In this document: piece by piece, positions 4,291 to 60,315 of the stretch | Numbering within the stretch: position 1 is the first letter of the stretch | How the letters are laid out: every line of letters starts with the position of its first letter | DNA from: Methanomicrobiales archaeon | GTDB lineage: Archaea; Halobacteriota; Methanomicrobia; Methanomicrobiales; JACTUA01 | Assembly (NCBI GenBank): GCA_015660865.1 | Contig: JACTUA010000001.1 | Span: 200,304-264,303, forward strand | Direction of reading: 5' to 3' | DNA: 64,000 nucleotides | Made by a program: the position numbers and the translations under genes | The notes under the pieces: model-generated | Databases searched by the model: none | What the model saw: only the letters and a program-made list of their open reading frames with translations | What the model was told of the DNA's origin: nothing

Positions 4291-4569
4291 ATGAAGATGC
4301 CGGTGAAATTCAACACATACTGCCCTTTCTGCCGGAAACACGAGATTCACGAGGTCGAGAGGGTCAAGAAAGGCAAGACCCGGGGTCTCCACTGGATCGA
4401 CCGGCAGAAGGCGAGAAGGGGAAAGGTCGGGAACATGGGCAAGTTCTCCAAGGTTCCCGGCGGCGACAAGCCGACGAAGAAGATCAACGTGCGCTACCGG
4501 TGCACGAAGTGCAAGAAGGCGCATCTTCGGCCCGGCTTCCGGCTCTCCAAGTTCGAGCTCACGGAGTGA
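4291..4569 (+). CDS. rpl44e: 50S ribosomal protein L44e (eL42)
   Basis: [33 protein letters not shown]. Zn-ribbon L44e sequence, 92 aa. Confidence 0.95.
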
Positions 4570-4573
4570 GAGA

Positions 4574-4762
4574 ATGGTCCGTCTGAATCGCGAGAACCGG
4601 AGCAGGTTCTACCGGGTGAAGTGCCCTGACTGCGAGAACGAGCAGGTCATCTTCGGGAAGGCAAGCACCGTCGTCGACTGCATCGTCTGCGGGAAGGTCC
4701 TCGCCGAGCCGGCGGGGGGAAAGGCGCGGATCACGGCTGAGATCCTCTCCGAGATCGAGTGA
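4574..4762 (+). CDS. rps27e: 30S ribosomal protein S27e
   Basis: FYRVKCPDCENEQVIFGKASTVVDCIVCGKVLAEPAGGKA. S27e Zn-ribbon, 62 aa. Confidence 0.95.
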   Translation: MVRLNRENRSRFYRVKCPDCENEQVIFGKASTVVDCIVCGKVLAEPAGGKARITAEILSEIE

Positions 4763-4769
4763 GCGTCCG

Positions 4770-5549
4770 ATGGCCGAGAGGGAGTGGCCCGAGGAAGGGG
4801 AACTGGTCGTTTCCACCGTCGAGGCCGTGAAGGACTTCGTGGCCTTCGTCCGGCTCGACGAGTACGGGGGCCGGCAGGGGCTCATCCCCATATCGGAGAT
4901 CGCAAAGGGCTGGGTCAAGTACATCCGTGACCACGTCCGCGAGGGGCAGAAGGTGGTCTGCAAGGTCCTCCACGTCGACAGGAACCGCGGGCACATCGAC
5001 CTCTCGTTGAAGGACGTGAATGAGCACCAGCGGCGCGAGAAGATCCAGGAGTGGAAGAACGAGCAGAAGGCCCATAAGTGGATCGGCTTTGTCGCCGACG
5101 AGTCAAAGGTGCCGGCACCGGCCATCGAGGAGGCAATCCGCAATGACTACACCCACCTCTACCGCGCCTTCGAGGATGCCGTCGTTGAGGGGGAGAAGGT
5201 CTTCGAGAAGCTGGCCATTCCTGACCCGGCACGGCCTGTTTTTCTCCGCATTGCGGGGGAGAACGTCCGGAAACCCCGGGTCACGATCGCGGGGTACCTC
5301 CACCTCACCTCCACCAAACCCGACGGTGTAAATGTCATCCGGCGGGCCCTCCGGAGCGCCATCACCAAGATCGACAACGTGGATATCGAGCTCCTGTACG
5401 TCGGCGCACCCATCTACCGCATCAAGGTGACCGCACCGGACTACAAGCAGGCCGAGAAGGCCATCGAGAAGTCAGCGATGGCCGCCATCCGGATCATGGA
5501 GAAGACAGGGGACTCCGGGGAGTTCGTCCGCAAGCAGAAGGCCGGTTGA
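4770..5549 (+). CDS. eif2a: translation initiation factor aIF2 alpha subunit
   Basis: S1 domain (WPEEGELVVSTVEAVKDFVAFVRLDEYGGRQGLIPISEI..HIDLSLKDV). 259 aa and conserved L44e-S27e-aIF2a context. Confidence 0.95.
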   Translation: MAEREWPEEGELVVSTVEAVKDFVAFVRLDEYGGRQGLIPISEIAKGWVKYIRDHVREGQKVVCKVLHVDRNRGHIDLSLKDVNEHQRREKIQEWKNEQKAHKWIGFVADESKVPAPAIEEAIRNDYTHLYRAFEDAVVEGEKVFEKLAIPDPARPVFLRIAGENVRKPRVTIAGYLHLTSTKPDGVNVIRRALRSAITKIDNVDIELLYVGAPIYRIKVTAPDYKQAEKAIEKSAMAAIRIMEKTGDSGEFVRKQKAG

Positions 5550-5554
5550 CCTGT

Positions 5555-5716
5555 ATGAGCGGCCGGATCAGGCGCTGCCCCGCCGATTCCACCTATACCC
5601 TCTCACTTTTATGCCCCTGCTGCAAGAGGCCGACCCGCACAGCCCACCCTGCCAGGTTCTCCCTGAATGACCGGAGGGGAAGGCTCAGGAGGATGGCACG
5701 GGTATGGACGCGATAG
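5555..5716 (+). CDS. nop10: H/ACA RNP protein Nop10 (53 aa, below the ORF-track cutoff)
   Basis: Manual translation gives MSGRIRRCPADSTYTLSLLCPCCKRPTRTAHPARFSLNDRRGRLRRMARVWTR. It shows the Nop10 Zn-ribbon and HPxRFS motif and sits in the conserved position after aIF2a. It overlaps the next gene by 13 nt. Confidence 0.85.
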   Translation: MSGRIRRCPADSTYTLSLLCPCCKRPTRTAHPARFSLNDRRGRLRRMARVWTR

Positions 5717-6447
5717 AGATCCGGTGGCTGAAGGAAGAGACTGGTCCTGCCGAGATCCTCATCGAGGGGCTCCCGGGCATCGGCCACGTGGGGAAGCTCG
5801 TGGCCGAGCATATGATCCAGGAGTTCCATGCCTCGAAGGTCGCCGAGCTCTACTCCACCCACTTCCCTCCCCAGGTCATCATCGAGCCGGACGGCGTTGC
5901 GCGGCTGGTACGGAACGAGGTCTATGTGAGCGAAGGTGAGAAGCGGATCGCGTTTCTGGTCGGCGATTACCAGAGCGCGTCCGCCGAGGGGCATTACCTC
6001 CTCTCAGAGGCCTACCTCGATATCGCGGAACGCCTCGGGGTGCGCCGGATCTACACCCTCGGCGGATACGGGGTCGGCCACCTGGTCTCGGAGCCCCGCG
6101 TGCTCTCGGCGGTGAACCGGGCGGAGCTCCGGCCCGACGTCGAGGCGGCGGGGGCCGAGTTCAACCGGGACGAGCCCCCGGGCGGGATCATCGGCGCCTC
6201 GGGGCTCCTCCTGGGCCTCTCCTTCCGCAGGGGGATGGACGCCGTCTGCCTGATGGGGGAGACGAGCGGCTACCTGGTCGACCCGAGGGCCGCGTCGAGC
6301 CTCCTTGCCGTCCTCTCGGCCCTCATCGGGGTCGAGGTGGACAAGAGCCAGCTCGAGACCAGGGCCGCGGAGATGGAACAGGTCATCGCGAAGCTCACCG
6401 AGAGCGAGCGGGCCGGTGACGAGGAAGCCCTCCGGTACATCGGCTGA
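5704..6447 (+). CDS. proteasome assembly chaperone (PAC2/COG1938) family protein
   Basis: EILIEGLPGIGHVGKLVAEHMI..GGYGVG.. is typical of archaeal PAC2-family proteins. Conserved neighbour of nop10. Confidence 0.8.
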   Translation: MDAIEIRWLKEETGPAEILIEGLPGIGHVGKLVAEHMIQEFHASKVAELYSTHFPPQVIIEPDGVARLVRNEVYVSEGEKRIAFLVGDYQSASAEGHYLLSEAYLDIAERLGVRRIYTLGGYGVGHLVSEPRVLSAVNRAELRPDVEAAGAEFNRDEPPGGIIGASGLLLGLSFRRGMDAVCLMGETSGYLVDPRAASSLLAVLSALIGVEVDKSQLETRAAEMEQVIAKLTESERAGDEEALRYIG

Positions 6448-6450
6448 TCC

Positions 6451-7566
6451 ATGCTCCTCGACACCGACCTCCACATCCACTCCCGGTTCTCCATCGCTTC
6501 TTCGCGATCCATGGTCCCTTCCTCGATCCTCGCGGGATGCCGGAGGAAGGGGATCGCCGCTGTCGGGAGCGGTGACGCCCTCCACAGGGAATGGCGGCAG
6601 ATGTGGGAAGAGTCTCCCGGGGAAGCCGGGGTTCTCGTCATCCCGTCGGCTGAAGTCGAGGACCGGAACCGGGTCCACCACCTCATCCTGGCCGAGACAT
6701 TCGGGATCTTCGAGGATCTCGCGCTCCGGTTCTCACCATCTGCCCCGTCCATCACAACAATGGGACGCCCTCACCTCAGGCTCTCCGGAGAGGAGATCTC
6801 CCATGAGGTCCACGATGCAGGAGGGCTGATCGGTCCTGCCCATGCCTTCACGCCCTGGACCTCCCTCTACGCATCCTTTGACCTGGCCCGGGAATGTTAC
6901 GGTGAAGAGAGGCCTGATCTCCTGGAGCTCGGGCTCTCTGCCGACTCATCCTACGGCGCGGGGATCTCTGAGCTCCGGGGCATCCCCTTCCTCTCCAACT
7001 CGGACGCGCACAGTCCCTCGCCGGTGAAGATCGGGAGGGAGTTCAACAGGATGCAGGTCCAGGTCCTCACCGTAAAAGCGGTCCTCGAAGCGGTTCAGAA
7101 AGGCGGGATCGCAATGAATGCAGGGTTCTTCCCTGAAGAGGGCAAGTACAACCGGACTGCCTGCACCCGGTGCTACCGGCAGTTCACCCTTGAGGAGGCG
7201 GGAAGCCTCAAATGGCGCTGCCCGGATGACGGCAGGCTCCTCAAGAAAGGGGTCTCGGACCGGGCAAAGGAACTCTCGGACAGTCCCGGCGAACCCAGGC
7301 CGCCGTACCTCCACCTCATCCCGCTCCTCGAGATCATCCAGAGGGTCCTCGGGACCTCGAGCCCCAACACCAAGCGCTGCACCGCCCTCTACACCCTTCT
7401 CCTCGAGACCTTCGGAGACGAGATCCGGGTCCTCGTGGATGTACCTGTTTCAGAGATCCAGGGGCTCAACGAGGAGGTCGGCGACGCCGTCGGGAAGCTT
7501 CGCACCGGACAGGTGCAGCTCTTCCCGGGCGGCGGAGGCCGCTACGGGAGATTCTCCTTCGGGTGA
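6451..7566 (+). CDS. endoQ: endonuclease Q (PHP-domain, TIGR00375-like)
   Basis: N-terminus MLLDTDLHIHSRFSIASSRSM..GSGDALH matches the PHP-type start of archaeal EndoQ. Internal Zn finger CTRCYRQF..WRCPDDG. 371 aa. Confidence 0.8.
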   Translation: MLLDTDLHIHSRFSIASSRSMVPSSILAGCRRKGIAAVGSGDALHREWRQMWEESPGEAGVLVIPSAEVEDRNRVHHLILAETFGIFEDLALRFSPSAPSITTMGRPHLRLSGEEISHEVHDAGGLIGPAHAFTPWTSLYASFDLARECYGEERPDLLELGLSADSSYGAGISELRGIPFLSNSDAHSPSPVKIGREFNRMQVQVLTVKAVLEAVQKGGIAMNAGFFPEEGKYNRTACTRCYRQFTLEEAGSLKWRCPDDGRLLKKGVSDRAKELSDSPGEPRPPYLHLIPLLEIIQRVLGTSSPNTKRCTALYTLLLETFGDEIRVLVDVPVSEIQGLNEEVGDAVGKLRTGQVQLFPGGGGRYGRFSFG

Positions 7567-7659
7567 CCGGCCTCTCTCGACCTGGACCTGCGCCCTTATC
7601 CCGTATTCCTGTCTCCATCTGGTTCACCGTTGATCAGTCCCGGGAGAGTCTTCCTGCCC

Positions 7660-7986
7660 TCAGATCTCGATCACACCGGTATTCTCTTTCCCTGCGGGCG
7701 GAGCCGCCGGGACTACAGAGGCAAGTGCCCCCATCAGGTTCGCGACCTTCGGGTCCTCGAGGACATTCCTGAGCGCCTCGAGCTCCTTCGGGCTCCGGAT
7801 CATGATGCCTTTCCTCTTCATCGGTGTTCCCCTCTCATCGACAGGGTTGATCTCAATCGCAAGGGTGGGAGGCCGTGTTGTGGTTCGTGGCATCCTCAGG
7901 ATGGAGACCCCGCGGAGCGAGGTTGCCTTCCGTTCCCAGTCCTTCCCTTCCTCGAGGAAGTTCTCGAGTGTTTCCGTGACGTTCAT
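7660..7986 (-). CDS. hypothetical protein
   Basis: 108-aa ORF with non-degenerate composition lying between convergent and divergent neighbours. No recognisable motif. Confidence 0.4.
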   Translation of the reverse strand: MNVTETLENFLEEGKDWERKATSLRGVSILRMPRTTTRPPTLAIEINPVDERGTPMKRKGIMIRSPKELEALRNVLEDPKVANLMGALASVVPAAPPAGKENTGVIEI

Positions 7987-8221
7987 GCGGGTGACTCGTC
8001 AGGGTGATAAGATAAATCCTCGCCGGGCACCCTGAAAGTGCCCGAAAGCAGGGAGGGAATTTTCCCGGGGGGTATCGTCCTTGCACCAGCTATCCCTCAC
8101 CCTGCGGGGATCATCACCCCTCTACCCCCAGTCCCTGCAAGAGCCTACCACCGTGTTCATAACTGGGAAATCCCAATACTGTTCCAGCCTCTTAATCGAT
8201 ATCCCTGGTGAGAGTTCCGTC

Positions 8222-9382
8222 ATGAAGGAGGAGACCTCGTACCGGAAGTCCCTTGGCCTCGTGGAGCTCGTGAGCCTCGGGGTGGGCGGGACCATCGGCT
8301 CGGGTATTTTCGTGGTCCCGGGCATTGCTGCAGGGATAGCAGGGCCCTCCTCCATCTTCGCGTGGCTCATCGTCGCCCTCTCGGCCTGCTGTGTGGCCCT
8401 TTCCCTCGCCTGGATCCAGGCACGTTCCCCGTCAGGCACGACCTTCACCGCCATCTTCGAACCGGTCTTCGGGCCGCGGGTCTCTGGGATCATCGTCTCT
8501 ATCTACCTGGTATCCTCGGTCTTCGGCATCGCGACGATCGCGGCAGGCCTCGGCCAGTACTTCACCTTCTTTGCGATACCCCACATTCTTGCTGCCGAGA
8601 TCTTTGTCATCATGGCCTTCCTCGGCGTGAACCTGATCGGGATCGCCTTCTCGGGAAGGACCGAGAATATCCTCACCGCGGCAAAGATCGTACCGATCGT
8701 GATCATCGCGGTGGCCCTTATCCCCTTCATCCGCATGGAGAACCTGGTGCCCCAGCAGGTCGCCGGGCTGCCCGACATCCTGAAGGTGGTCATCATCGTG
8801 TACTGGCCCTTCACCGGCTTTGAGATCAGTGCCATTCCGGTCGAAGAGACGCGGGATCCGAGGACCATCTCCCGGGCGCTCCTCCTGGTCATGCTCCTCG
8901 TCTGCACCATCTACCTGGTGCTCAACCTCTCCCTCATCGGCTCGGTTGGCGCAGCGGGCCTCGCGGCATCCCCTGCACCGGTCGCGTACGCGGCAGGGAT
9001 CATCTTCTCCGGCGCTGCACCTGTCGTCGCCGTTATCGGGATCATCACCATGTTCTCTGCCCTGAATGCCTACATCGTCGGGACATCACGGGTCCTCCAG
9101 AACATGGCTGCGAGCTTTCACTTCCCCAGGCTCGCCGAGCTGACGCTCCGCGGGACCCCCAAGAATGCCCTGGTCATCTCCTGCATTCTCTCGGGGGCCC
9201 TCCTCTTCTTCTCCAACTCCTTCGGGCTCCTCGCGTCGATCGCGGTCGTGACCACCCTCGTCCCCTACGTCGCCATCTGCCTCGTTGCCTTCATCCTTTC
9301 GGGAGATGTGCGGGTGAGGGTCCTGGGAACCGTCGGGGCCGCCATGACGGCAGCCATCCTCATCCTCTATTTCGTCTTCTGA
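8222..9382 (+). CDS. APC-superfamily amino acid permease
   Basis: Start at ATG 8222 ([34 protein letters not shown], the APC signature). About 12 hydrophobic segments. The upstream 47 codons of the ORF-track entry are judged non-coding. Confidence 0.85.
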
Positions 9383-9972
9383 TTCTCTTTCTGATCCGGA
9401 ACAGGAGCTGAGTTGGGCTGGGTTCCATTCTCCTCGACAAAGACCGCAGCAGAGATGACCGTGGTCCACTTGCCGGTCTTCTCCCCCTGCGCGGACTGGC
9501 AGATATGGGTTGTTTTGAAGATCTTCCCGCTCGCCTTGTAGATCTGCTCGCGCTCCTGCCAGGCCTGGTCCTGGTCGAACTCGATACCCAGGGTGGTGGC
9601 GAGCATGGTCGCGGCAAGGTCCTCGGCATACTCTCCTGACTTCTCGGCGGTCTCCCCGAAGGTGTGGTGCTCGGAGAGGTACCCGTACTCGTCCTGGGCA
9701 CTCGGGCGGGCGAGGCCGATGGCTGCCGAGATGAGCCGGTTCGGCTCGTTGGTGTCGCTCCTCGCCATAACGACGAAGACGATCTGCCCGGGCTGGAGGA
9801 TCTTCAGGCCTTCGTCTGCAGGGACCTGCTTGCATTTAGGAGGGAGGATGCTCGAGACATGGACAAGGTTGAACTTCTCGATTCCGGCTTTCCTGAGTGC
9901 GAGCTCGAAGGACGCGAGCTTGTCCTTGTGGATGCCGACGCCCTTCGTGAAGAAGATCTTCGCGGGAACCAT
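9367..9972 (-). CDS. pdaD: pyruvoyl-dependent arginine decarboxylase
   Basis: [45 protein letters not shown] contains the SS self-cleavage site of PdaD. It has a C-terminal tail of about 35 aa that overlaps the convergent permease by 16 nt. Confidence 0.9.
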
Positions 9973-10244
9973 TACTCAGTCTTGTTCGTTTTACTTTTTT
10001 AAATGTATGGGAACGCCGGAGCGGGAAAAAGACTTATATATAGGGTTTAAAATGGGATTATTCCCGTAATCTCACTTTTGTTTTCCCATGGATGCACATC
10101 CTGTATTCTTTTTCCCTTTTACCTGAGAAACTCTTTCTTTTCCCCATTCAGAGCAGGTGATGCGAGCCGGTCAGGAAATATCCCCATTCGCGCCGCCGGC
10201 CGGTGCGCAGGGGAACACTTTTTACGTATCTCTCCCATACCAGA

Positions 10245-12296
10245 ATGAAAAGAGGAGGAGAGTTATTGACAGATATTCCGGCCTCAACCATCCGGGGAAT
10301 CGGGAAGCTCGCGAGGGATATGGCAGCCATCACCGGGTCCTTCTCCTACCCCGAGACCGCCTACCACCTCCCCATCACCTATGCCCTCACCGGGGTTGCG
10401 GTACAGGACGGTGCATCGGCCCGGCAGGCATTCGCAAAATCCGGGGAAAATCCGCTCGTGGCCTGCGAGTGCCTCCTTGCCTCGAAGGACGCCGCATCGG
10501 GACACGAAGGGGCACCCTACACGGGTTTCATCCCTGACACGGTGCTGCGCAAGCTCGGCTACTCGCTGGTGGACGGATCGATCCTGGGGATGGCCCTCCT
10601 CGCGGGATCTCCGGCCTCTGCCGACGAGGCCGCCGGGATGGCCCGGGAGCTACAGGAGAAGTACATGCTCACCTTCCTTGCCGGGGACATCATCCGCATC
10701 CTCTCCTCTGCCGGGGTGAAGACCGGGCTCGACTACCGGCTGGCCCCCCTCGGGTCCCTTCCCATCCACGGGGTGCACTTCATCGACATCGTCACGCGGG
10801 TGGCCATGATGTTCGGCGGGGTGGTCCCGGGGGATGCAGACCGGCTTATCGCCTATGCCACCGAGCGGGCAAAGGTCTTTGCCATCATCTTCCCGGGGCT
10901 AGCCGACGAGGAGATCGCCTTTATGGATACCCTCAAGGCCCTCTCGATCCCGGTCCTCACCACGGGGGGCTATGAGGGAGGCACCTGGGAGAAGGTGACG
11001 GCCGAGCAGGTGGTGTCCCGCGGGATGGAGCTGAAGGATATCCGGGTCAAGGTGACCGCGATCCCCATCCCCATGGGCTGCTCGCCGGCTTTCGAGGGGA
11101 AGAGCATCCGGAAGGAGGAGATGTACGTGGAGTTCGGGGGCGGGAAGTCGCCGGCCTTCGAGCTCCTCAGGACGGGGAGGCCGGGCGAGGTGGTGGACGG
11201 GCGGGTGACGGTGATCGGCCCCGAGATCGGTGAGATGCGCCAGGGTTCGGCGGTCCCCCTCGGGATCCTCATCGAGGTGGCGGGGAAGAGGATGCGCAAG
11301 GAGTTCGAGCCCGTGCTCGAGCGCCGGATCCACAACTTCGTCAACTACGGCGAGGGCTCCTGGCACGTCGCCCAGAGGAACCTCATCTGGGTCAGGCTCT
11401 CGAAGGAGGCGGTGGCAAAGGGGGTGAAGGTGGAGCACCTGGGGAAGCTCCTTGCTGCCAAGTTCAAGATGGACTTCCCCGAGCTCCTCGATGCCGTCCA
11501 GGTGACCCTCTTCACTGACGGGAAGAAGGTCGTGGAGATGATGGAGGAGGCCGAGCAGACCTACGAGGAGCGGGACCGCCGGGTCCTGGGCATGAAGGAC
11601 GACGAGGTGGACACCTTCTACTCCTGTACCCTCTGCCAGACCTTCGCCCCGAACCATGTCTGCATCATCACCCCCCAGCGGCCCGCCCTCTGCGGGGCGA
11701 TCAGCTGGCTCGACGGGAGGACCGCGTACGAGATCTCTCCGGCAGGCGCAAACCAGCCCGTCAGGAAAGGGAGGCTCATCGATGCGGCACGGGGCGAGTT
11801 CGAAGGGGTGAACGAGTTCGTCCGGAAGGCCTCCCACGGCGAGGTGAACCGCTGCTCCCTCTATGCCCTCATGGAGAACCCCATGACCTGCTGCGGGTGC
11901 TTCGAGTGCATCGCGGTGGTGCTCCCCGAGGTGAACGGGGTCATGGTGGTGAACCGGGAGTTCACCGGCGAGACCCCGTGCGGGATGTCGTTCTCCACCC
12001 TAGCGGGGACCATCGGGGGCGGTGCTCAGACGCCGGGCTTTGCGGGGATCTCCAAGGCCTTCATCCTCTCCGACCGCTTCCTCCAGGCCGAAGGGGGGAT
12101 CGAACGGCTCGTCTGGATCCCCGCCATGCTCAAGGAGGAGCTCGGGCCCAGGCTGGAAAAGAGGCTCGAGGTGATCGGGAAGGCAGACCTCTTCGGGAAG
12201 ATAGCCGACGAGAACGTCGCGAAGACCCTCGAGGAGCTCCAGGAGTTCCTCGCGAGGGTGAACCACCCGGCGCTCTCCATGAGGCCCCTCATCTGA
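10245..12296 (+). CDS. acsB: acetyl-CoA synthase catalytic subunit, bacterial AcsB-like long form (A-cluster)
   Basis: 684 aa from ATG 10245. The N-terminal domain has YPETAYHLPITYALTG, like bacterial AcsB. A-cluster region: CTLCQTFAPNHVCIITPQRPALCGAISWLDGR and CCGCFECI. Confidence 0.9.
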   Translation: MKRGGELLTDIPASTIRGIGKLARDMAAITGSFSYPETAYHLPITYALTGVAVQDGASARQAFAKSGENPLVACECLLASKDAASGHEGAPYTGFIPDTVLRKLGYSLVDGSILGMALLAGSPASADEAAGMARELQEKYMLTFLAGDIIRILSSAGVKTGLDYRLAPLGSLPIHGVHFIDIVTRVAMMFGGVVPGDADRLIAYATERAKVFAIIFPGLADEEIAFMDTLKALSIPVLTTGGYEGGTWEKVTAEQVVSRGMELKDIRVKVTAIPIPMGCSPAFEGKSIRKEEMYVEFGGGKSPAFELLRTGRPGEVVDGRVTVIGPEIGEMRQGSAVPLGILIEVAGKRMRKEFEPVLERRIHNFVNYGEGSWHVAQRNLIWVRLSKEAVAKGVKVEHLGKLLAAKFKMDFPELLDAVQVTLFTDGKKVVEMMEEAEQTYEERDRRVLGMKDDEVDTFYSCTLCQTFAPNHVCIITPQRPALCGAISWLDGRTAYEISPAGANQPVRKGRLIDAARGEFEGVNEFVRKASHGEVNRCSLYALMENPMTCCGCFECIAVVLPEVNGVMVVNREFTGETPCGMSFSTLAGTIGGGAQTPGFAGISKAFILSDRFLQAEGGIERLVWIPAMLKEELGPRLEKRLEVIGKADLFGKIADENVAKTLEELQEFLARVNHPALSMRPLI

Positions 12297-45087: not shown

Positions 45088-45089
45088 CT

Positions 45090-45107
45090 CCTTTTTTTAT
45101 CTTTTTA
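45090..45107 (+). terminator. T-tract terminator candidate after nusA
   Basis: CTTTTTTTATCTTTTT lies immediately after the nusA stop. Archaeal terminators are oligo-T tracts. Confidence 0.35.
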
Positions 45108-45246
45108 CCAATTGGTTAGTTTGTCTTCAGGGACTAAGATGATCAATGCTGCAAAGGATCCCGAGGACCAACCTTCACAAAATCTAGATGGCAGCGGGCT
45201 AAGTTATAAATAACCTTAGTGCTAGTGATTATTCGTAACCAAATTT

Positions 45247-46125
45247 ATGCCAGAGCCCGCGTCAACGTCAATATTATCAATCGCATTACCGCCTATTTTT
45301 GAGACTTTTTTAACGAAATTAGGCAGCTTGATTGATTTAAAGGACTTATGGAGAATATTTTGGTTAAATCGACACTTAGAAAAGAAAGCAGAAGATAAGA
45401 TGGTGGTTGATGATATTTTGGATTTAAAATCCCGATTAATCGATGCGATAAAAAAATCTGATTACGAGCGAATGAACTTTTTATTGTATGCGATGCTGCA
45501 TAAATGCGATCAAATGTCTCCAGCTGCTAGAACAGCCGTTGCATTATCTATCGAAGATAGCTTGATATCTTTTTCTTCGATGCCTAATCTTTTAGAAGAT
45601 GGTCTTTTTACAATATTCGCAATCTCTATGAAGTTTTTACCGGAATGGGAAGAAAAATATCATCCGATATATACAAAGAAAGGTGATATGCTATTTTTCA
45701 CCTTTTCACCTGCGCAAGACATTTTTCAAGATTCACTTTTTTCTGCATCGAGTGTTGTATTGGGGCTCATTTATAGGATTATAATTAAATCTTCAGAATT
45801 ATCGGAAAAAAATTTAATACGTTGCAGTAACTTCTTATTATTTCTTTTAGCCGGAGATTTGGACTTAAACAAAAGAAGTAAGTTCTTTTACACGTCGATT
45901 TTACTGATCATTGTACAACTTGCCGCCAAAGCGAAGTCATTAAAGTTAGAGCCTTTAAACGAGAAATTATTTGTACTGCTTAAAAAATTTGATAAAAATT
46001 GGTTAGATGAAATATTGAAAATTAGTCTGGAGAAAGCAAATCCGTTCGCAAAAATGGGAGATATCGACGTTATACTTGCAACAAAAAATGAAATTCTTTC
46101 TTTAAGGGACGAATTGAACAAATGA
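45247..46125 (+). CDS. hypothetical all-helical protein (AT-rich island gene 1)
   Basis: 292-aa ORF in AT-rich DNA with Lys/Ile/Leu/Phe-rich composition unlike its neighbours. TATA-like GTTATAAATAA lies about 40 nt upstream. No motif recognised. Confidence 0.5.
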   Translation: MPEPASTSILSIALPPIFETFLTKLGSLIDLKDLWRIFWLNRHLEKKAEDKMVVDDILDLKSRLIDAIKKSDYERMNFLLYAMLHKCDQMSPAARTAVALSIEDSLISFSSMPNLLEDGLFTIFAISMKFLPEWEEKYHPIYTKKGDMLFFTFSPAQDIFQDSLFSASSVVLGLIYRIIIKSSELSEKNLIRCSNFLLFLLAGDLDLNKRSKFFYTSILLIIVQLAAKAKSLKLEPLNEKLFVLLKKFDKNWLDEILKISLEKANPFAKMGDIDVILATKNEILSLRDELNK

Positions 46126-46231
46126 GTATCGTAATTTTAGGTATGGATGCCCTTGGGGATTTTATCGGATCCCCTCGTTCCGGATTTCTACCCAACTATA
46201 AGCCGGTGGACTTTCCGGGGAAAACCTGGAC

Positions 46232-46420
46232 GCTCTCGGGGGAGGGAGGTTTCATAAGAAACCGACCTCGAGCGACGAAGTCGCGAGCTTCGCCCCCGCC
46301 GCGGGCACCCCCCCGTAGTGTACTGAGATATCCGGAAATACTTTTTCCCATATGATCTGATGCCCAGTTATTGGGCCTATCCCCACGCGGGGGACGCCAC
46401 AGCGGCGGGGGTGAGGGCGA
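46232..46420. repeat. GC-rich inverted-repeat (MITE-like) element, copy B, with a ~44-nt two-hairpin insert
   Basis: Shares GCTCTCGGGGGA..CTTCGCCCCCGCCGCGGGCAC(C)CCCCGTAGTGTACT and GGGCCTATCCCCAC..GGGGGACGCCACAGCGGCGGGGGTGAG with 31031-31192. The insert is GGGAGGTTTCATAAGAAACCGACCTCGAGCGACGAAGTCGCGAG. Confidence 0.55.
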
Positions 46421-46421
46421 T

Positions 46422-46802
46422 ATGGCAATAATTTATTGCTCTGAAGAATTAATCAAATCGCTAATGACCGATATTTGTATCGAATATTATGACTTTTTGT
46501 TTTTAGTTGGTATTATCACTGCATTTATAATAGAACTTGTAATCGGCACCCTTGCCATTCGTTGGCTTTTGAGAAGGCATGCAATGATGACGCATCAACC
46601 CTTTAATACTGCCGGACACGTATCACGATTCTTAACAGCTATTATTACAGGCGCTGTAAGTGGTTCTATTGTATATTATCTTGTAAAGGAGCCATCTCCT
46701 GATTTTGTTGGGACAATACTGATAATGATGATGCTGTTAATTTTCATAGTTGTCATGTATTTCATTAGTTTGGGTGTTGAAATCTACTTTTCACAACAAT
46801 AA
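46422..46802 (+). CDS. hypothetical small membrane protein (AT-rich island gene 2)
   Basis: 126 aa from ATG 46422. Three hydrophobic segments. The 17 upstream codons of the ORF-track entry lie inside the GC-rich repeat. Confidence 0.45.
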   Translation: MAIIYCSEELIKSLMTDICIEYYDFLFLVGIITAFIIELVIGTLAIRWLLRRHAMMTHQPFNTAGHVSRFLTAIITGAVSGSIVYYLVKEPSPDFVGTILIMMMLLIFIVVMYFISLGVEIYFSQQ

Positions 46803-46877
46803 TTGGCTTTTTTGAGGGACGAGCGACCCTAATGCTCTGGAACTCTCTTTTTGGAGATTTTTTCGGGTGAACAAAAT

Positions 46878-46961
46878 GCGCGTGGGAAGGGAGGTTTCAT
46901 AAGAACCCGTCCCGAGCGACGAAGTCGCGAGTTCACCCCCGCAGCTCAGGCACCCCATTGC
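46878..46961. repeat. partial copy C of the GC-rich element (two-hairpin module plus left arm)
   Basis: GGGAAGGGAGGTTTCATAAGAACCCGTCCCGAGCGACGAAGTCGCGAGTTCACCCCCGCAGCTCAGGCACCCC is a direct repeat of 46241-46310. Confidence 0.5.
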
Positions 46962-47060
46962 TATGGGCTGATACAAAGTAAAACAACTTTTTAAACAGAA
47001 ACCTTTTATAAATGGCCCAAAACCATTGTGTATAGAGATTTGACTCCTCGGAGCCAATAT

Positions 47061-48917
47061 ATGTCAGAAATATCACCAAAACCTTATCCACCCAATAGCG
47101 ATCTTGAACAAATGGCGATAACAACATTTGAGAGTTTATTAGATTTGAAAACAGTCTTCCCAAGAATTTCACGAAATGATAAAATACCCGATATTGACGG
47201 ATGTCTGGTTTTATGTGATATTAATAAAGTTCCAATAGCGAAATTAGAAGTCCAAATTAAAAAATTACCTGATGGAAATTCAGATGACCCCAAAATTCCT
47301 TGCCCCTTATCAATTTTCGGCTATGCAAAAATGGCAATTGTCCCTGTTCTTTTGATCTCTGTGGATGTTGACAAAAGCATTGCGTATTGGATCCATATTG
47401 ACGATGCGTTATTCTCAAAGTATCGTGATTCAATCACCGAAATACAAAAAACGGTCTTAATCCACTTTCCCCATGAAAACTACATTGATGGAAAAGATTT
47501 GAATTATCTAACTAAATGGAAACAAATTTATGAGGATAAACGAGGGAAGATCGAAAACTTTGATCGAATAGAACGTGAAAATGCATTACTGAAAGAATTT
47601 TCTAATCCAATCTTGGGAAAGGAAAGTCCTCATATTAAAGAAATTCATCGGTTTTTAGATGATCTGAATTATTTTTTAGATACGCAATTTCCGATTGTTA
47701 AAAAAGTGTTTTTTAAAAATGCATGGAAGGTGGGCATAGCGTATTTTGAGTATTCAAACGATCGCCTCTCGTATTCCTTGTTCCCGATTCCCTCCGATAA
47801 AAACGACGTTCAGATAAAAATTATTGATGAGCCTCTTAAAAGGAAATTGAGCAAAGAGCACTACGATACTACAGGACATTATCGAGAAAATCCGATAAAA
47901 AGACGATCTCGTGATTATGCTCTTGAGATAATTGAATCTAGAATTTCACGAATTTTACAATATCATCTTCTTAATCATAAGAATGAATTTTTAGCGCGAG
48001 AGTTCATCTTTGCGTTTATAGACCAATTTTACGTCCAATTAGGCCTTAAAATTAAAAATGAATACACAGTTGAAGAAATCGATATGGCTTTTTTCCGCTT
48101 CTTGCCCCATTGGACTGCCGAAGCAATTCAACACCTAATGCAAGGTAAAGGGAAAAATAAGGTTGGCCCGTCAAATCCCATATTTCGAAAATTATTCATT
48201 GATCCTGATTTGATTAATTGTCTCATAATGCCCAATGAACAACAAATCATTATCGAACGTGTACTAAATCGATTAGCCAATAACAACCCAACGCCAATAA
48301 TTCCGTTAGGCAACGAAAAGTTACCCTTCGGTACATTTTTTGAATTATTTACGTTCTTAAAATCCCTCGGAATAGTTTCAATTCAAAGAATTTATTCCCC
48401 CAAAGATTATGGCCGGTTGCGCACGAGATCAAATTGGATGTGGAATGTTTATTCACCAGAACAAATAAAAGAAAATTTGTCTATCTTTTTCGCTAATTTA
48501 AATAACGTTTATACAAGTCTTGTTTATCAAAATTTTTTCGAAATTAAAGATAACCTACCGATATTCGGTAAGGCAAATAGAATTGTTGCAGTGTACTCAG
48601 TTGAAGAAGACTATGATATGCAACACTTTCCATCTCTACATTGTTATTTCCTTTTTGATGAATCGCTTGGCAGAAAAATTGTTTTCGAATTATACAATAA
48701 AACCGAAGTGCCAGACATCCCCTCTATGCAGGAGATAAAATCAGATCAGGACTTCTTAATCAATGGAAGAAAGTACCCGATTATCGCTTTGAGTCAGGAA
48801 ATCTTAGAATTTATTTTCAAAGATTTGCCAATGACGGATTATTGTTATGATTTGCTTCAAAGAAATTTGAAGAATTATTTCCATAATAGGAAAGAAGAAA
48901 GGAAAAGCTTAGGATAA
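47061..48917 (+). CDS. large hypothetical protein with DUF4365-like (restriction-endonuclease-fold) N-terminus (AT-rich island gene 3)
   Basis: EQMAITTFESLL..KIPDIDGCLVL..AKLEVQIKK matches the E..D.DG..(E)VQ.K pattern of DUF4365-type PD-(D/E)xK domains. About 480 further residues have no recognised motif. ATG 47061 follows GGAG. GTG 47028 is an alternative start. Confidence 0.6.
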   Translation: MSEISPKPYPPNSDLEQMAITTFESLLDLKTVFPRISRNDKIPDIDGCLVLCDINKVPIAKLEVQIKKLPDGNSDDPKIPCPLSIFGYAKMAIVPVLLISVDVDKSIAYWIHIDDALFSKYRDSITEIQKTVLIHFPHENYIDGKDLNYLTKWKQIYEDKRGKIENFDRIERENALLKEFSNPILGKESPHIKEIHRFLDDLNYFLDTQFPIVKKVFFKNAWKVGIAYFEYSNDRLSYSLFPIPSDKNDVQIKIIDEPLKRKLSKEHYDTTGHYRENPIKRRSRDYALEIIESRISRILQYHLLNHKNEFLAREFIFAFIDQFYVQLGLKIKNEYTVEEIDMAFFRFLPHWTAEAIQHLMQGKGKNKVGPSNPIFRKLFIDPDLINCLIMPNEQQIIIERVLNRLANNNPTPIIPLGNEKLPFGTFFELFTFLKSLGIVSIQRIYSPKDYGRLRTRSNWMWNVYSPEQIKENLSIFFANLNNVYTSLVYQNFFEIKDNLPIFGKANRIVAVYSVEEDYDMQHFPSLHCYFLFDESLGRKIVFELYNKTEVPDIPSMQEIKSDQDFLINGRKYPIIALSQEILEFIFKDLPMTDYCYDLLQRNLKNYFHNRKEERKSLG

Positions 48918-49157
48918 CATTTCCAAGTGCATCCCTTATGCACCCGGAATGTTTTCAAATCCATTTTCTCAGAAGTATGAGACAGTATCGAAAATATGAA
49001 GATTTTACCCCCTTGCCCCCAACCCACCTGCCGCCGCCTGCTGGGGAGAGCACGGTCTTACACTCGGGCCGCCATTAAAGCATCTCCTATGGAGGCGGGC
49101 ATCCGCGATGGGGAAGGCCTTGCCTGCAGCAATCAGTCCCGCCCACCTCCAGCCCTA

Positions 49158-50237
49158 TTAGGCCGCCTCCACAGCGCGGGTCAGGAAAGGACTCTTCCCC
49201 CTCATCTTCCCCCACGCCCTCACCAGCCCGAAGCAGCCGGTGAGCATCATGTCCCCATAGGGTGCAGCCTGGTAGGCATCGGGGAGGATCCCTTTCCGGT
49301 TCGGGCCGGTGACCGCCAGGTATTTGCTCGGATGCGGCCGGTGTACCCTGGCCCCATGTCCTCCATCCCTGAAAATCTCCTCGTTTGTTAATGTCCCTTC
49401 ACGGAGCTTCCCGATGAGGGAGAGGAGGTGGGCGCGATCCAGGGAATGCGTGTGATGCTCGACGATCCCACAGACCTCCTCCCCGTGGAGGTTCACGCAG
49501 AAGGTATGGGCATTCCCGGCGTTCACAAGGGTGACGCCGTCCTGTGCCCGTTCCTTCACCCAGGGATCGCAGAGTGCCCCGAGGAGAGCGGCTGGGCCGG
49601 TGTCGATGACGAGCGACCCGGGCGCCTGTCCCCGGAGGGCCGCCATCCGGGTCATGGTCGGGAGGGGCGGGTCCCGGGCGAGGGCCCAGATCTGCCAGTC
49701 TCCCTCCTCCAGGAGATCCCCCATGACCCTGAACCGGTGGAGGCGGTTGCTCTCCGCCGGGGAGAAGCCATGGTCCTGCACGGCGAAGGCATGGTCAACC
49801 GGGTATGGTACCCCGAAGGCGCGGAGGGCCACCCTGATTTCAGCCTCCATGTAATCGGTGGTGCGGACGAGGGTTGTATCAGGGGGCTGGCTGGAGACGA
49901 GCTGGATGCCAAGGGACCTTACCTTCTCGAGGTTGTCATGGATGGTGAGGGCCGCGGGCTCTGTCGCAAAAACGGAGAGCCCTTTCCTGAGATGCTCGGA
50001 AACGGCCTGGACCGAGTCCCCGCCTCCCATGGTGTACCCGTCCAGGAAAATGGCCTCGCCCCTCGCACCCGCTTCGCGGATCCTCTGCGCAACGACGGCC
50101 GTCGGCGCCGGGAGGACCATCTTCACGCAGTTCTCGACGGGGCGGCCCGGGTCGTAGACGAGGACGTCCTGGGTCCCCCGCCCGATGTCGACGGCGAGGA
50201 GGGTCATGCCGGGCTGCGCGAGGGGGTCTTGCTCCAT
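49158..50237 (-). CDS. DUF1786-like ASKHA (actin-fold) family protein
   Basis: LLAVDIGRGTQDVLVY (phosphate-1-like), VIDTGPAALLGA and LVNAGNAHT. The size and sequence resemble archaeal DUF1786 proteins. It overlaps the nrdD 3' end by 34 nt. Confidence 0.55.
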   Translation of the reverse strand: MEQDPLAQPGMTLLAVDIGRGTQDVLVYDPGRPVENCVKMVLPAPTAVVAQRIREAGARGEAIFLDGYTMGGGDSVQAVSEHLRKGLSVFATEPAALTIHDNLEKVRSLGIQLVSSQPPDTTLVRTTDYMEAEIRVALRAFGVPYPVDHAFAVQDHGFSPAESNRLHRFRVMGDLLEEGDWQIWALARDPPLPTMTRMAALRGQAPGSLVIDTGPAALLGALCDPWVKERAQDGVTLVNAGNAHTFCVNLHGEEVCGIVEHHTHSLDRAHLLSLIGKLREGTLTNEEIFRDGGHGARVHRPHPSKYLAVTGPNRKGILPDAYQAAPYGDMMLTGCFGLVRAWGKMRGKSPFLTRAVEAA

Positions 50238-56711: not shown

Positions 56712-58289
56712 TTATGTACTCATTAAAGAACTTGCATATGTAAACAGTAATTCGCTTCTTTTATTAACGAATTCGTCGAAAGAATCCGTAAATACTGATG
56801 GAGGGATTAATGCTGATCTTAACATCCGGTCGATATTGTCAGGCATTTTTTCACGATAATTTCTTGGGCATTCTCCGCCCAATCGGTTATTATCGTTTTT
56901 TGACATGAAGCATATATTTGCTAAACAATCAGGAGAAGATGAAATTGTTTGTTCTTTCAAACAATTTTTTGGAAATATGTGATGAAACTCATTTTTATTG
57001 TATTCTTTTAAGACCTCTCCAATATTGATAGGTAGTCCTGAAATAAAGTTCAGAGGGTTTAGTTGGGCAAGCATTAGAATGAAAGAATTTGTATTAACAG
57101 TTCCTAACTTGAAAGAATTGTCGATGAAAAATTCTCGATTAATATTTACCGAAAATCTTTCAAGTGCCGACTCCTCCCCGTTTTTAAGTTTAATGATTTC
57201 TTCTATATCTCGATTCAGATTTCGTAAGACACCTGCACTATATCTTTTTGAAAAACATGTTTTCCAGAACCACTTCTTGATTTGAGTTACTTGAGCAGCA
57301 GTGCAAGTAATTTGGCGACCATTTTCAATCGAGAAAAATACTGATAGAGGTATTAATATTGAATTGAATGGTAAATTATCTTGTTTTGAAAGGTTAAACT
57401 GAGTTCTAATGAAATCAATACTTCCTTTAATCCCATTAGTAATTTCCTGGAATCTATCTCGAACAATCGCACCATTTAAATCCATTACCGTTTTTACGCT
57501 AACTTCGTTCTGCAATATCGCCGAAATACACCTCAATAATAAATTCTCGTCATCTCCAACTTCTTTAAATCCAAAGGGTTTCAGATCACCTTTTAATTCT
57601 CCAAATTTCGTTTTCAAGTCGAATTCTTCACTCCAAGTCCAGGCAGAAAGTAACTGAAATGTATCAAGAGGAACGCCTCGCGTATTAATTCTTTCAAAAA
57701 CAATTGCTACTTTTGTCTTATCTTCAGTCTCCAAGATATCAATGGGAATTCTCGTTTCCTTAAAAATCGATTGAAGAGTATCAATTTTTTTTGCTAAATC
57801 ATCAGTAAAATCTTTTGTTGCCAGCCGATATGCGACTGTATCAAATAAGTATTTCAATGGGAAATGTTTCGAATTATCAAATTGTTCTTCTGAACATGAA
57901 TAAAATTGTGTGTCCTGCATGACTGGATCCTCTGTAAAATCGTAATATATACTGAATTTTTGATTTTCGGAAGAGTCTGTTGCTGGCCGAAGAATAGTCT
58001 GAAACACACCGAACAATGAAGTGATTCGTTGTTGCCCATCCAAAACATAATCAATTGGATAATCTGGATCCCTATCAATGAGATTAAAAGGCCCAATTTG
58101 CTTTTCAGTACTCAAAGGTTGCTTCGTTCTCCAAAATAATAGCGTACCAACAGGATATCCTTTATAGATACTATCCATTAGATACGCAATCCGATCTCCT
58201 TCCCAAATAAAACCGCGTTGAAAAGCTGGTATCCGAATTTGGCCGGAAAGAATTTTTTCATTTAACTCCCGAATAGTATATTCCGCCAT
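56712..58289 (-). CDS. GmrSD-like type IV (modification-dependent) restriction endonuclease (DUF262 plus DUF1524-like HNH)
   Basis: N-terminus IPAFQRGFIW..YKGYPVGTLLFW..LDGQQRITSL (DUF262/ParB-like). C-terminus EFHHIFPKNCL..NICFMSKNDNNRLG (His-Me finger). AT-rich. Confidence 0.8.
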   Translation of the reverse strand: MAEYTIRELNEKILSGQIRIPAFQRGFIWEGDRIAYLMDSIYKGYPVGTLLFWRTKQPLSTEKQIGPFNLIDRDPDYPIDYVLDGQQRITSLFGVFQTILRPATDSSENQKFSIYYDFTEDPVMQDTQFYSCSEEQFDNSKHFPLKYLFDTVAYRLATKDFTDDLAKKIDTLQSIFKETRIPIDILETEDKTKVAIVFERINTRGVPLDTFQLLSAWTWSEEFDLKTKFGELKGDLKPFGFKEVGDDENLLLRCISAILQNEVSVKTVMDLNGAIVRDRFQEITNGIKGSIDFIRTQFNLSKQDNLPFNSILIPLSVFFSIENGRQITCTAAQVTQIKKWFWKTCFSKRYSAGVLRNLNRDIEEIIKLKNGEESALERFSVNINREFFIDNSFKLGTVNTNSFILMLAQLNPLNFISGLPINIGEVLKEYNKNEFHHIFPKNCLKEQTISSSPDCLANICFMSKNDNNRLGGECPRNYREKMPDNIDRMLRSALIPPSVFTDSFDEFVNKRSELLFTYASSLMST

Positions 58290-58460
58290 TTTTACGCCCC
58301 CCACCCAAAAATGTTAGACAATAAAGAAGAGATTCATAATAATATATAGATTTTTTGAGGGATTTTAAAAATAAATCTCAAAATGATCATTTATTGAGTT
58401 TACTTCATCTAAAAAAAGATGTTGACTTAAGAATGATTTTTTTGGGGTGGGGGATTCAAG

Positions 58461-59187: not shown

Positions 59188-60315
59188 ATGACACAAATGG
59201 AATTCCCCTGCCTCAAGGCAGGGCAACATGGACGCACATTTTATTCGTGTGTGATCCCCGCTGACAGATTGTCTGAAATGTATAGTAAGGGAATAATCAA
59301 AGCAGATGTATGGAGGCCGGAACACAGACAGGGATATCAGAGAGAATCGGTCAGGCTAAGAGCACGCAAATTTGGTAATTATGTTAAGAGTAATGGCATT
59401 TCCCCCACATCGATCCTGTTATACCAGAGAGACCTGTCAAACGGCGTGGTGTTCGCTGATGGGAAAATCACTATCCCAGATATGAAATCTGATGAACCTT
59501 TGTTGTACATCGTTGATGGACAACACCGGGCACTCGGCCTTGAAGATGGGTTCGCAAGAGGTGATCTTGATGAAACCTTGAAATTCGACGTACCCGCTGT
59601 AATCCTCCTGAAAGGAGATCGAGATCCCTATATCGAAGAGGCAGAACAATTCGTCACTATAAATTCGACTCAAAAGCGGGTCAGAACCGATCTAGCCAGT
59701 CAGCAATTGCTGAAAATCGCGGAACAGGGTGGAATATTGAAAGGTGCAATCACAGATGGATCGATTATTGACGTCGGTGCACCAAAGGAAATTCTGAAAC
59801 TGTTTGCAACCCATGTTGCGAACATGCTTACAGATGATCCCTCCTCACCGCTGTATGGAAAAATTGTCCGACCGGCAACAGCACGTGCCGATTCGGGATT
59901 GCCATCTTCATCACAATTCGAAGACTCGCTGCTCGATAACTATGTCGAAGGATCAGTGATGTCATTCGCGGCGAATCGGGCATACACCATTGGGGAGCTT
60001 GTGGAGCTGCTGAAGAATTACTGGGCCGCGATCTTTGAACTTCTTCCTAGTGCAATTGAATCCCCTTCCGAGTACCATGTCACAAAGACGGTTGGGACGC
60101 ATGCATTAAACGCCCTTATACCCTCTATGTTCAATTTGAAGAGGCTCAAGAAAGTCCCGAGCAAGGAAGACTTTCAAAAAGTGCTTTCCACTCTCGAGTA
60201 CATGGCTGACGAATCCCACTGGGGTAAAGGAGGAACAATTGGCGGTTATGGTGGGGGGAAGGGAGCATTCAAAAGACTCACAAAGGATCTCCACACGGAT
60301 CTCCTCAATTCTTAA
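59188..60315 (+). CDS. DGQHR-domain (DndB-like, ParB-nuclease superfamily) protein, orphan
   Basis: LYIVDGQHRALGL is preceded by GYQRE and ILLYQRD. The FVTINSTQKRV motif is typical of the DndB/DGQHR family. GC is lower than the surroundings. Confidence 0.8.
   Translation: MTQMEFPCLKAGQHGRTFYSCVIPADRLSEMYSKGIIKADVWRPEHRQGYQRESVRLRARKFGNYVKSNGISPTSILLYQRDLSNGVVFADGKITIPDMKSDEPLLYIVDGQHRALGLEDGFARGDLDETLKFDVPAVILLKGDRDPYIEEAEQFVTINSTQKRVRTDLASQQLLKIAEQGGILKGAITDGSIIDVGAPKEILKLFATHVANMLTDDPSSPLYGKIVRPATARADSGLPSSSQFEDSLLDNYVEGSVMSFAANRAYTIGELVELLKNYWAAIFELLPSAIESPSEYHVTKTVGTHALNALIPSMFNLKRLKKVPSKEDFQKVLSTLEYMADESHWGKGGTIGGYGGGKGAFKRLTKDLHTDLLNS

Follow-up and report, generated by a model that had tools for sequence, protein, structure and literature searches.

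What does a solitary, AT-rich gene that joins a nuclease-like head to an unrecognisable body do in the chromosome of a Methanomicrobiales archaeon? The gene in question lies in a 64,000-nucleotide stretch of contig JACTUA010000001.1 (positions 200,304 to 264,303 of the forward strand; the whole stretch is called the window here, and coordinates refer to it unless a homologue locus is named). An initial annotation, made from the letters alone, had described a protein of about 620 amino acids (aa) with a DUF4365-like PD-(D/E)xK nuclease head, and had proposed it as a single-protein or three-gene defence effector of an undescribed architecture. On the evidence below, we lean towards reading the product as a self-contained, horizontally mobile defence protein, in which a nuclease effector head would be unleashed by a sensor body.

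The open reading frame (ORF) is present at 47028-48917 on the plus strand, with all the motifs quoted in the initial annotation in its translation, and it is not a chance ORF, because it spans 1.9 kb in DNA of 34% GC, has 59 full-length relatives in a word-indexed search, and matches 1,253 cluster representatives at E≤1e-3 (482 at E≤1e-30) in an exhaustive profile search. It encodes 629 aa when read from GTG 47028, and residues are numbered on this 629-aa form throughout. However, the position of the start codon needs to be corrected. Homologue N-termini align near M12, and ATG 47061 is preceded by a TATA-like TTTATAAA at 47005-47012 and by GGAG at 47050-47053, 7 nt ahead of it, suggesting that transcription probably begins downstream of GTG 47028 and that the true start codon is probably ATG 47061, which would give a protein of 618 aa. 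The database protein identical to that of the window (P0001, 601 aa, from a Methanomicrobiales metagenome-assembled genome, MAG) is annotated by NCBI from M29 (47112), a start that appears to be 17 codons late and that loses the conserved catalytic-helix acid E27.

The identity of the head was established by profile and structure comparisons. Pfam DUF4365 (PF14280) matches residues 56-159 of the window protein with E=1.5e-4 over 104 of its 139 profile positions, at 22.2 bits for a gathering cut-off of 24.3 bits, and the same family is matched by 45 of 50 relatives at E≤0.1 (best 5.9e-10), with P0104 (30.5 bits) and P0073 (25.0 bits) passing the cut-off. The PADLOC model Aga_REase-PNTD1-PNTD2 is matched by 35 of the 50, over its restriction endonuclease (REase) segment only (model positions ~22-137 of 429). 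A full-length AlphaFold2 model, built from a 50-sequence alignment (predicted local distance difference test score, pLDDT, 86.3; predicted template modelling score, pTM, 0.66), was searched against PDB with Foldseek, and the significant matches were SPARDA DREN-APAZ chains only. These chains fill the top 14 places (9qcc, 9jt2, 9vx6, 9qbp, 9qbq and 9jsz; E=9e-6 to 7e-3), with 9qcc, 9jt2 and 9vx6 at E=9e-6 to 3e-4, probability 1.0 and ~150 aligned columns, and they are followed in the ranking by the small PD-(D/E)xK nucleases D212 and RecU/PrfA. In PADLOC, the window protein also matched Cas3d over 63 residues (E=5.5e-4), a match seen in one of 50 members and set aside as spurious.

The predicted catalytic residues fall in the expected motifs, with E27 in DLEQMAITTFESLL, D57 in IPDIDG, and Q76 and K78 in KLEVQIKK; D51 and D113, the latter in VPVLLISVD, are likewise conserved. 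In the family profile, the block 'iDG...VQiK...PvLLigVD...AYW' aligns to the equivalent DREN block and places D57, Q76 and K78 on D41, Q60 and K62 of NbaSPARDA, of which the D41A/Q60A/K62A triple mutant has lost nuclease activity (bioRxiv 10.1101/2023.06.08.544223). The same DxGxD...QxK motif is required for the toxicity of EAT16, a DUF4365 toxin of an extracellular contractile injection system (PMC11297309). All 50 relatives have an acid (E or D) at position 27 and keep both D57 and Q76; at position 78, 37 have K and 13 have R, and K is found there in 95 of a broader set of 107 sequences. The family-wide DUF4365 matches, the DREN structural matches and the conserved E27/D57/Q76/K78 thus make the head a probable active DREN-type nuclease, with the R78 subclade as a caveat. 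The DUF4365-like head of the initial annotation is upheld by these results: the N-terminus has a profile match just short of the Pfam cut-off, its predicted fold matches DREN chains (E=9e-6), its catalytic residues are conserved, and its relatives, as described below, are not confined to isolated genes.

The head is followed by a linker of two helices and a low-confidence stretch, with pLDDT below 50 at residues 185-198. Since the pTM is 0.66 for the full-length model and 0.89 for the body modelled alone, the linker is probably a flexible tether between head and body in the predicted structure. The body itself (~430 aa, residues ~199-629) is confidently folded in the model (pLDDT 92.2). Conservation is highest in its N-terminal subdomain, where E325 is invariant (107 of 107 sequences), N214 is kept in 98%, D211 in 96%, and W233, K234, G236, I263, N288 and Y346 in 91-94%, and where a strand motif N259-[D/E]260-x-x-I263-K264 is found. 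The C-terminal half, the most variable part of the family, is a candidate trigger-recognition surface by this pattern of conservation.

The initial annotation had seen no recognisable motif in the body, and none was found by any of the searches made. Pfam, NCBIfam and PADLOC contain no family matching the body of the window protein, and across the 50 members no consistent match to it emerged in Pfam or PADLOC. The family profile against PDB sequences found no body match, only the DREN head, weakly, and single-sequence PDB matches to FBXL5 and AlaX were noise. Body-only Foldseek searches gave no significant hit, the best having E=0.25 and probability 0.08 in PDB and E=0.13 in BFVD, and the matches to the RnlA NRD-HEPN region, topoisomerase II and HIV reverse transcriptase p51 (probability ≤0.08, template modelling scores ~0.1) were treated as noise. 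One homologue follows gyrB-gyrA, which was counted as a coincidence beside the topoisomerase II fold noise. Residues 201-290 have an alpha-beta-beta-beta-alpha-beta layout with an 'NDVQIK' strand; a degenerate second PD-(D/E)xK domain in this region was rejected, as hhalign of the head with the N-terminal part of the body gave 14.6% probability over 36 columns and Foldseek found no restriction-enzyme fold.

A role for the body is suggested by the company that it keeps. Head types were surveyed among the best 150 of the 1,253 profile matches, several of which match the body only and carry a different N-terminus. In place of the DUF4365 head, the body is found with an HD-CE/HD head (P0092, Pfam 1.7e-32), a calcineurin-like metallophosphoesterase (Metallophos) head (P0168 and P0175, Pfam ~1e-12), a PNP_UDP_1 nucleoside phosphorylase head (P0180, Pfam 4.7e-12), a different head of ~190 aa with a D...ExK-like motif read from the sequence (P0125 and P0198) and a helical head (P0177 and P0097), the last two types without a Pfam match; P0073 adds an AAA_35 ATPase ahead of DUF4365 (Pfam 3.6e-27). 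The Metallophos and PNP heads also match PADLOC 'Effector' models, at 1.4e-17 and 1.8e-23, respectively, the former model being described as 'Endonuclease'. We take these generic 'Effector' models to be the CBASS effector set. A second homologue search, with the 107-sequence alignment, brought no further head types among the matches listed, and the variants with other heads are solitary genes too. A constant module with swappable toxic heads is a signature of immune sensor-effector proteins, and the finding that one constant body carries interchangeable toxic heads argues that the body would be the controller and the head the weapon. The initial annotation had pointed to DUF4365 heads on variable bodies; the informative pattern is the reverse, a constant body with variable heads.

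The family is large in metagenomes, rare in species genomes, and patchy over archaea and bacteria. A survey of ~185,000 species-representative genomes turned up only eight loci, which span Methanomicrobiales, Ca. Argoarchaeum, Bathyarchaeia, ANME-1, Neisseriaceae, an unclassified bacterium and Patescibacteria (with two of the copies in a single MAG). Searches of 72,556 plasmid and 50,697 phage records gave no copy, and 2.9 million viral contigs gave one. In the window, and likewise in each of the eight species-genome loci for which this was measured, the gene has a higher AT content than the DNA around it, and the patchy spread together with this AT-richness marks a horizontally moving accessory gene.

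The neighbourhoods of relatives were compared in a sample of 29 distinct loci. Restriction-modification (R-M) genes lie within 10 kb in nine of these, and in seven they abut the family member on the same strand, at spacings from an overlap to 480 nt. The family member follows hsdS by 8 nt in L001 and by 7 nt in L028, overlaps hsdR in L010, lies 138 nt after hsdR at the 3' end of a Type I operon in L019 (Neisseriaceae), precedes hsdM by 480 nt in L025, and overlaps Type IIG enzymes of ~900 aa in L045 and L056. The stop and start codons that overlap with those of restriction genes in L010, L045 and L056 suggest translational coupling. In the Type I operon of L019, a reverse transcriptase gene (RVT_1, 4752-6431) stands between hsdS and hsdR. 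Other defence genes are found as well: SIR2-HerA and a Cas4-like gene are adjacent in L015, AbiEi/AbiEii in L026, and Cas1 in L008, L034 and L035, while BrnT, Fic and Type I genes are nearby in L004. A census of 89 further neighbours contains, among the families listed, resolvases, integrases, three DNA methylases, AbiEii and Hypoth_Ymh amid housekeeping genes, and the copies of L006 and L013 stand alone among housekeeping genes. The association with defence genes that the initial annotation had anticipated is therefore present, with R-M genes at nine loci and SIR2-HerA, AbiE, Cas1 and Tn7 genes beside others, and because of the AT-rich island, the patchy phylogeny, these neighbours and the swappable effector heads, the behaviour of the gene as a conflict or defence gene is supported.

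Several of these loci show further features. In one subclade, with L008, L034 and L035, the family member is coupled to a solo Cas1 gene. In L008, Cas1 (7590-8807) and the family member (9001-10800) are bracketed by 87-nt inverted repeats (2155-2241 and 11638-11724) that delimit a ~9.6-kb segment in which no polymerase B was seen, a layout reminiscent of casposon organisation. In L035, a solo Cas1 is coupled to the family member by a 4-nt overlap (4407-7438), and a second, inverted Cas1 copy (80% identical) and then an unrelated 337-aa ORF are also present; between L008 and L035, Cas1 is 60% and the family member 48% identical. A 466-aa protein with a weak HEPN_RiboL-PSP match directly follows the family member, with a gap of ≤1 nt, in the two divergent loci L066 (3656-5056) and L067 (11588-12988), which may represent a two-gene variant. 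In L063, the family member (291-2141) overlaps the 3' end of a TnsD/TniQ gene, suggesting that it is cargo of a Tn7-like transposon. XPD/DinG-like helicases (DEAD + Helicase_C_2, ~850-870 aa) occur within ~1 kb of an HD-headed variant and a DUF4365-headed member in L020 (3613-6165) and L040 (4494-7106), and could be either a coincidence or a recurring partner.

Within the window, the gene stands in an AT-rich island of a Methanomicrobiales chromosome of ~63% GC, which begins at a T-rich tract past the nusA stop codon (45087) and reaches to ~49000. RNA polymerase B/A'/A'' genes, L30e and NusA precede it (38.5-45.1 kb), and a converging DUF1786 gene lies beyond its far side (49158-50237, minus strand). 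Its content is three plus-strand ORFs, one for a 292-aa protein, one for a protein with three transmembrane (3-TM) segments, and the nuclease-headed gene, and it is a mosaic of three AT-rich modules with two short GC-rich patches between them. Both patches are copies of one ~75-nt direct repeat that is 93% identical over a 45-nt core, contains a small hairpin and resembles a terminator in shape on the minus strand; the copies bracket the 3-TM ORF module. The repeat has only two copies within the window and no match in an Rfam search, no Rfam families were found in the island, and no integrase, tRNA or terminal repeats were found at its outer ends. The repeat-bracketed modules suggest cassette-like, separate insertions. 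The features of the island are listed in Table 1.

Table 1. Coordinates of the AT-rich island, the nuclease-headed gene and its parts, and the flanking elements in the window.
Feature	Position	Strand	Basis or remark
AT-rich island	45088..49000	none	30-40% GC; composition profiles, boundary sequence, DUF1786 annotation
292-aa helical orphan ORF	45247..46125	+	one database match; no relative in 19 homologue loci
Direct repeat copy 1 (~75 nt, GC-rich)	46239..46312	+	one flank of the 3-TM ORF module
Three-transmembrane orphan ORF, 127 aa	46419..46802	+	143 aa from TTG 46371; not a conserved partner
Direct repeat copy 2 (~75 nt, GC-rich)	46884..46956	+	~100 nt upstream of the nuclease-headed gene
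Putative archaeal promoter and ribosome-binding region	47005..47053	+	read from sequence; putative function
Gene, probable 618-aa protein (coordinates include stop)	47061..48917	+	DUF4365/DREN-like nuclease head and novel body
Head, residues 25-158, PD-(D/E)xK nuclease of DUF4365/DREN type	47100..47501	+	Pfam, PADLOC, Foldseek, profile alignment, conservation
Predicted catalytic codon E27	47106-47108	+	
Predicted catalytic codon D57	47196-47198	+	
Predicted catalytic codon Q76	47253-47255	+	
Predicted catalytic codon K78	47259-47261	+	
Linker, residues 159-200	47502..47627	+	two helices, then low-confidence stretch; structure prediction
Body N-terminal subdomain, residues 201-372	47628..48143	+	most conserved part of the protein; conservation analysis, confident model
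Body C-terminal half, residues 373-629	48144..48914	+	helices and beta-sheet domain; most variable part of the family

The common strand and the single AT-rich island would fit a three-gene system with the 292-aa helical and 3-TM proteins, the second form of the effector in the initial annotation. However, tblastn of both proteins against 19 homologue loci returned no relatives, none were seen in the further loci, and a search of 5.8 billion protein clusters with the 292-aa protein gave a single match, a fragment with 100% identity (a weak, sub-threshold HEAT-like Pfam match was also noted). Furthermore, because the GC-rich repeat patches divide the three modules, these appear to have been acquired separately. 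No partner gene is conserved across the family, and the system is a single gene; the single-protein form of the proposal is retained, and the three-gene form, both of its other members being orphans, is scarcely credible.

A second AT-rich island of the window encodes a GmrSD_N protein (530 aa, 56712-58304, minus strand; DUF262-type, Type IV restriction-like, E=9.3e-31) and a DGQHR/DndB-like protein (375 aa, 59188-60315, plus strand; E=2.7e-6, under the Pfam cut-off). The former, 7.8 kb downstream, is the recognisable defence gene closest to the nuclease-headed gene in the window. With defence-like genes in both islands, this stretch of chromosome carries at least two small imported defence-like islands.

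How would such a protein act? The proposal is modelled on SPARDA, in which the isolated DREN nuclease is held incompetent until target recognition leads to filaments, in which DREN forms a tetramer on double-stranded DNA and becomes a non-specific nuclease (bioRxiv 10.1101/2025.04.08.647717); activation of DREN by assembly is also described in two further papers (PMC12205087, PMC12774872). By this analogy and the swapping of heads, we infer nuclease activity, sensing by the body, activation via oligomerisation and an abortive outcome. The N-terminal ~135 aa would form a DREN/DUF4365-type nuclease with an E...D...QxK metal site, flexibly tethered to the ~430-aa body and held inactive in the uninfected cell. 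The body would then detect an infection cue, which may be a small molecule, a nucleic acid or a protein from a virus or plasmid, probably with its variable C-terminal half and with the invariant polar residues that cluster around E325. Oligomerisation of the body would bring the tethered heads together in an active assembly, and this assembly would degrade DNA without specificity and so stop the invader, while the cell would pay with growth arrest or death (abortive infection). Family members often close a Type I or Type IIG R-M operon at its 3' end and may serve there as a second line of defence, whereas in the window the gene is solitary. A more far-reaching version, in which a new-fold sensor body shared by archaea, bacteria of the Candidate Phyla Radiation and other bacteria recognises a cue and by its self-assembly activates whichever head it carries, thus defining an undescribed single-protein defence family, is tentative, and we would sooner doubt than assert it. 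On this version, the translational coupling often seen with Type I and Type IIG genes could mean that the cue is tied to the failure of restriction, e.g., anti-restriction proteins or restriction products.

Other explanations draw on the same observations. The protein could be a restriction-type endonuclease, Type IV-like or orphan Type II-like, whose body reads modified or specific foreign DNA and whose head cleaves it directly. Its frequent adjacency to Type I and Type IIG genes resembles the placement of TgvAB of Vibrio cholerae VPI-2, a Type IV system at or inside Type I operons (PMC11411939), its head is a nuclease, HD and metallophosphoesterase heads can be nucleases as well (the Metallophos head with its match to the 'Endonuclease' model included), and the variable C-terminal half could encode specificity. 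However, the PNP_UDP_1 head that the same body carries in P0180 would be useless for DNA targeting, and characterised DREN nucleases are non-specific and assembly-activated. Unlike in Type IV enzymes, Pfam, NCBIfam, PADLOC and fold searches found no modified-DNA- or other DNA-binding domain in the body, and no known DNA-binding fold was detected in its confident model, although it may hold a novel one; conservation in the body peaks in a polar cluster that looks buried, not in a variable reading surface. A restriction-type enzyme is therefore an unlikely reading. Less probable still is an accessory or guard of R-M systems, which would depend on the R-M complex or be held latent by it until viral inhibition of restriction set it off, in the manner of PrrC/EcoprrI, which we take to be a defence gene set in or appended to an R-M operon. 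Seven independent loci speak for such a partnership: there the gene abuts or overlaps, on its own strand, one end of hsdR, hsdS, hsdM or a Type IIG gene, and three of them have overlapping codons. Nevertheless, most loci, the window included, have no adjacent R-M gene, so that embedding is not obligate, as it would be for a guard gene (7 of 29 loci adjacent), and no sequence or fold relationship links the family to PrrC or GmrSD-like proteins. As the type of partner (Type I or Type IIG) and the adjacent subunit also vary, hitch-hiking in a hotspot is suggested rather than a specific partnership; R-M loci are known to attract insertions of unrelated defence genes (PMC11411939), and a hotspot has likewise been considered for Hma systems (Payne et al. 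2024).

A service to mobile elements, as a TnsA-like transposition or homing nuclease or in casposon or Tn7 maintenance, would draw on the coincidence of the DREN active site with that of TnsA (bioRxiv 10.1101/2023.06.08.544223), the overlap with TnsD/TniQ at one locus, the coupling to Cas1 at three (one between inverted repeats), and the resolvase and integrase genes among the neighbours. However, no TnsB/TnsC or polymerase partner was found, most copies, the window's included, lack conserved element ends, the head is interchangeable with non-nuclease effectors, and family members are nearly absent from the viral, plasmid and phage collections searched. Defence genes, moreover, typically travel as cargo of mobile elements, and we regard this explanation as very improbable. 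The reading as a defence protein with a sensor body is preferred over these rivals, and it has to be weighed against several observations of its own. The immediate neighbours of the window gene include no recognisable defence gene, and the same is true of ~40% of the loci. The Pfam score of the window protein falls short of the gathering cut-off, and the arginine at position 78 in 26% of close relatives is odd for a catalytic lysine. The absence of a fold match for the body covers PDB and viral predictions only, and the invariant polar cluster could point to an enzymatic instead of a sensory role for the body.

Comparison with known systems shows shared features with several of them, but the protein is neither a SPARDA component nor a CBASS effector nor a recognisable Type IV enzyme. 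The DREN-APAZ protein of SPARDA has a nuclease of the same fold and family (Foldseek E~1e-5; PADLOC Aga_REase) with equivalent D...QxK positions, shares the order of nuclease head, flexible linker and large regulatory body, and would, by analogy, share a likely latent, non-specific nuclease switched on by assembly. However, the body of the present family is not APAZ: beyond the PADLOC match to the REase segment only, the best SPARDA chain in the body-only Foldseek search was 9vx1 (E=2.5, probability 0.01). No PIWI/Argonaute genes were seen in the window or the annotated neighbourhoods, the 89-neighbour census covering its 25 top families, and, unlike in SPARDA, the family gives no sign of guide-dependent sensing. 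EAT16 and Divona, the latter reported as an anti-phage defence system from cassettes of Vibrio chromosomal integrons (bioRxiv 10.1101/2024.07.02.601686), also join a DUF4365 nuclease head to an unrelated C-terminal part, but EAT16 is an injected toxin and Divona has a RecB/Mrr-like nuclease and a crr6 domain as its body, and neither has the ~430-aa body. CBASS effectors and NLR-like Avs proteins likewise combine a constant sensing or regulatory module with swappable heads (REase, HD, calcineurin-like phosphoesterase, PNP); in contrast to these, the standard architecture of the family has no P-loop or STAND NTPase, with AAA_35 added only in P0073. The body has no match to a SAVED, STING or CARF-like fold among solved structures, no functionally characterised relative of it was detected, and no CD-NTase cyclase genes were seen in the annotated neighbourhoods. 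This architecture is not included in the PADLOC v2 families or in the HEC candidates of Payne et al. 2024, and no description of the body was found in the literature. The protein is thus predicted to be a known kind of nuclease head on an orphan sensor body.

Triggered collateral nucleases such as SPARDA have been noted for their diagnostic potential. If the proposal is true, more than 1,200 sequence clusters of one-gene defence systems would be added, with members in methanogens, ANME, Bathyarchaeia and Patescibacteria, lineages in which immunity is poorly known, and the DREN nuclease would be extended beyond Argonaute systems. The interchangeable heads offer an experimental handle, as one body should control chemically different effectors. 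Moreover, the sensor body would be without structural precedent in the libraries searched, so that its trigger and its activation mechanism would both be new biology.

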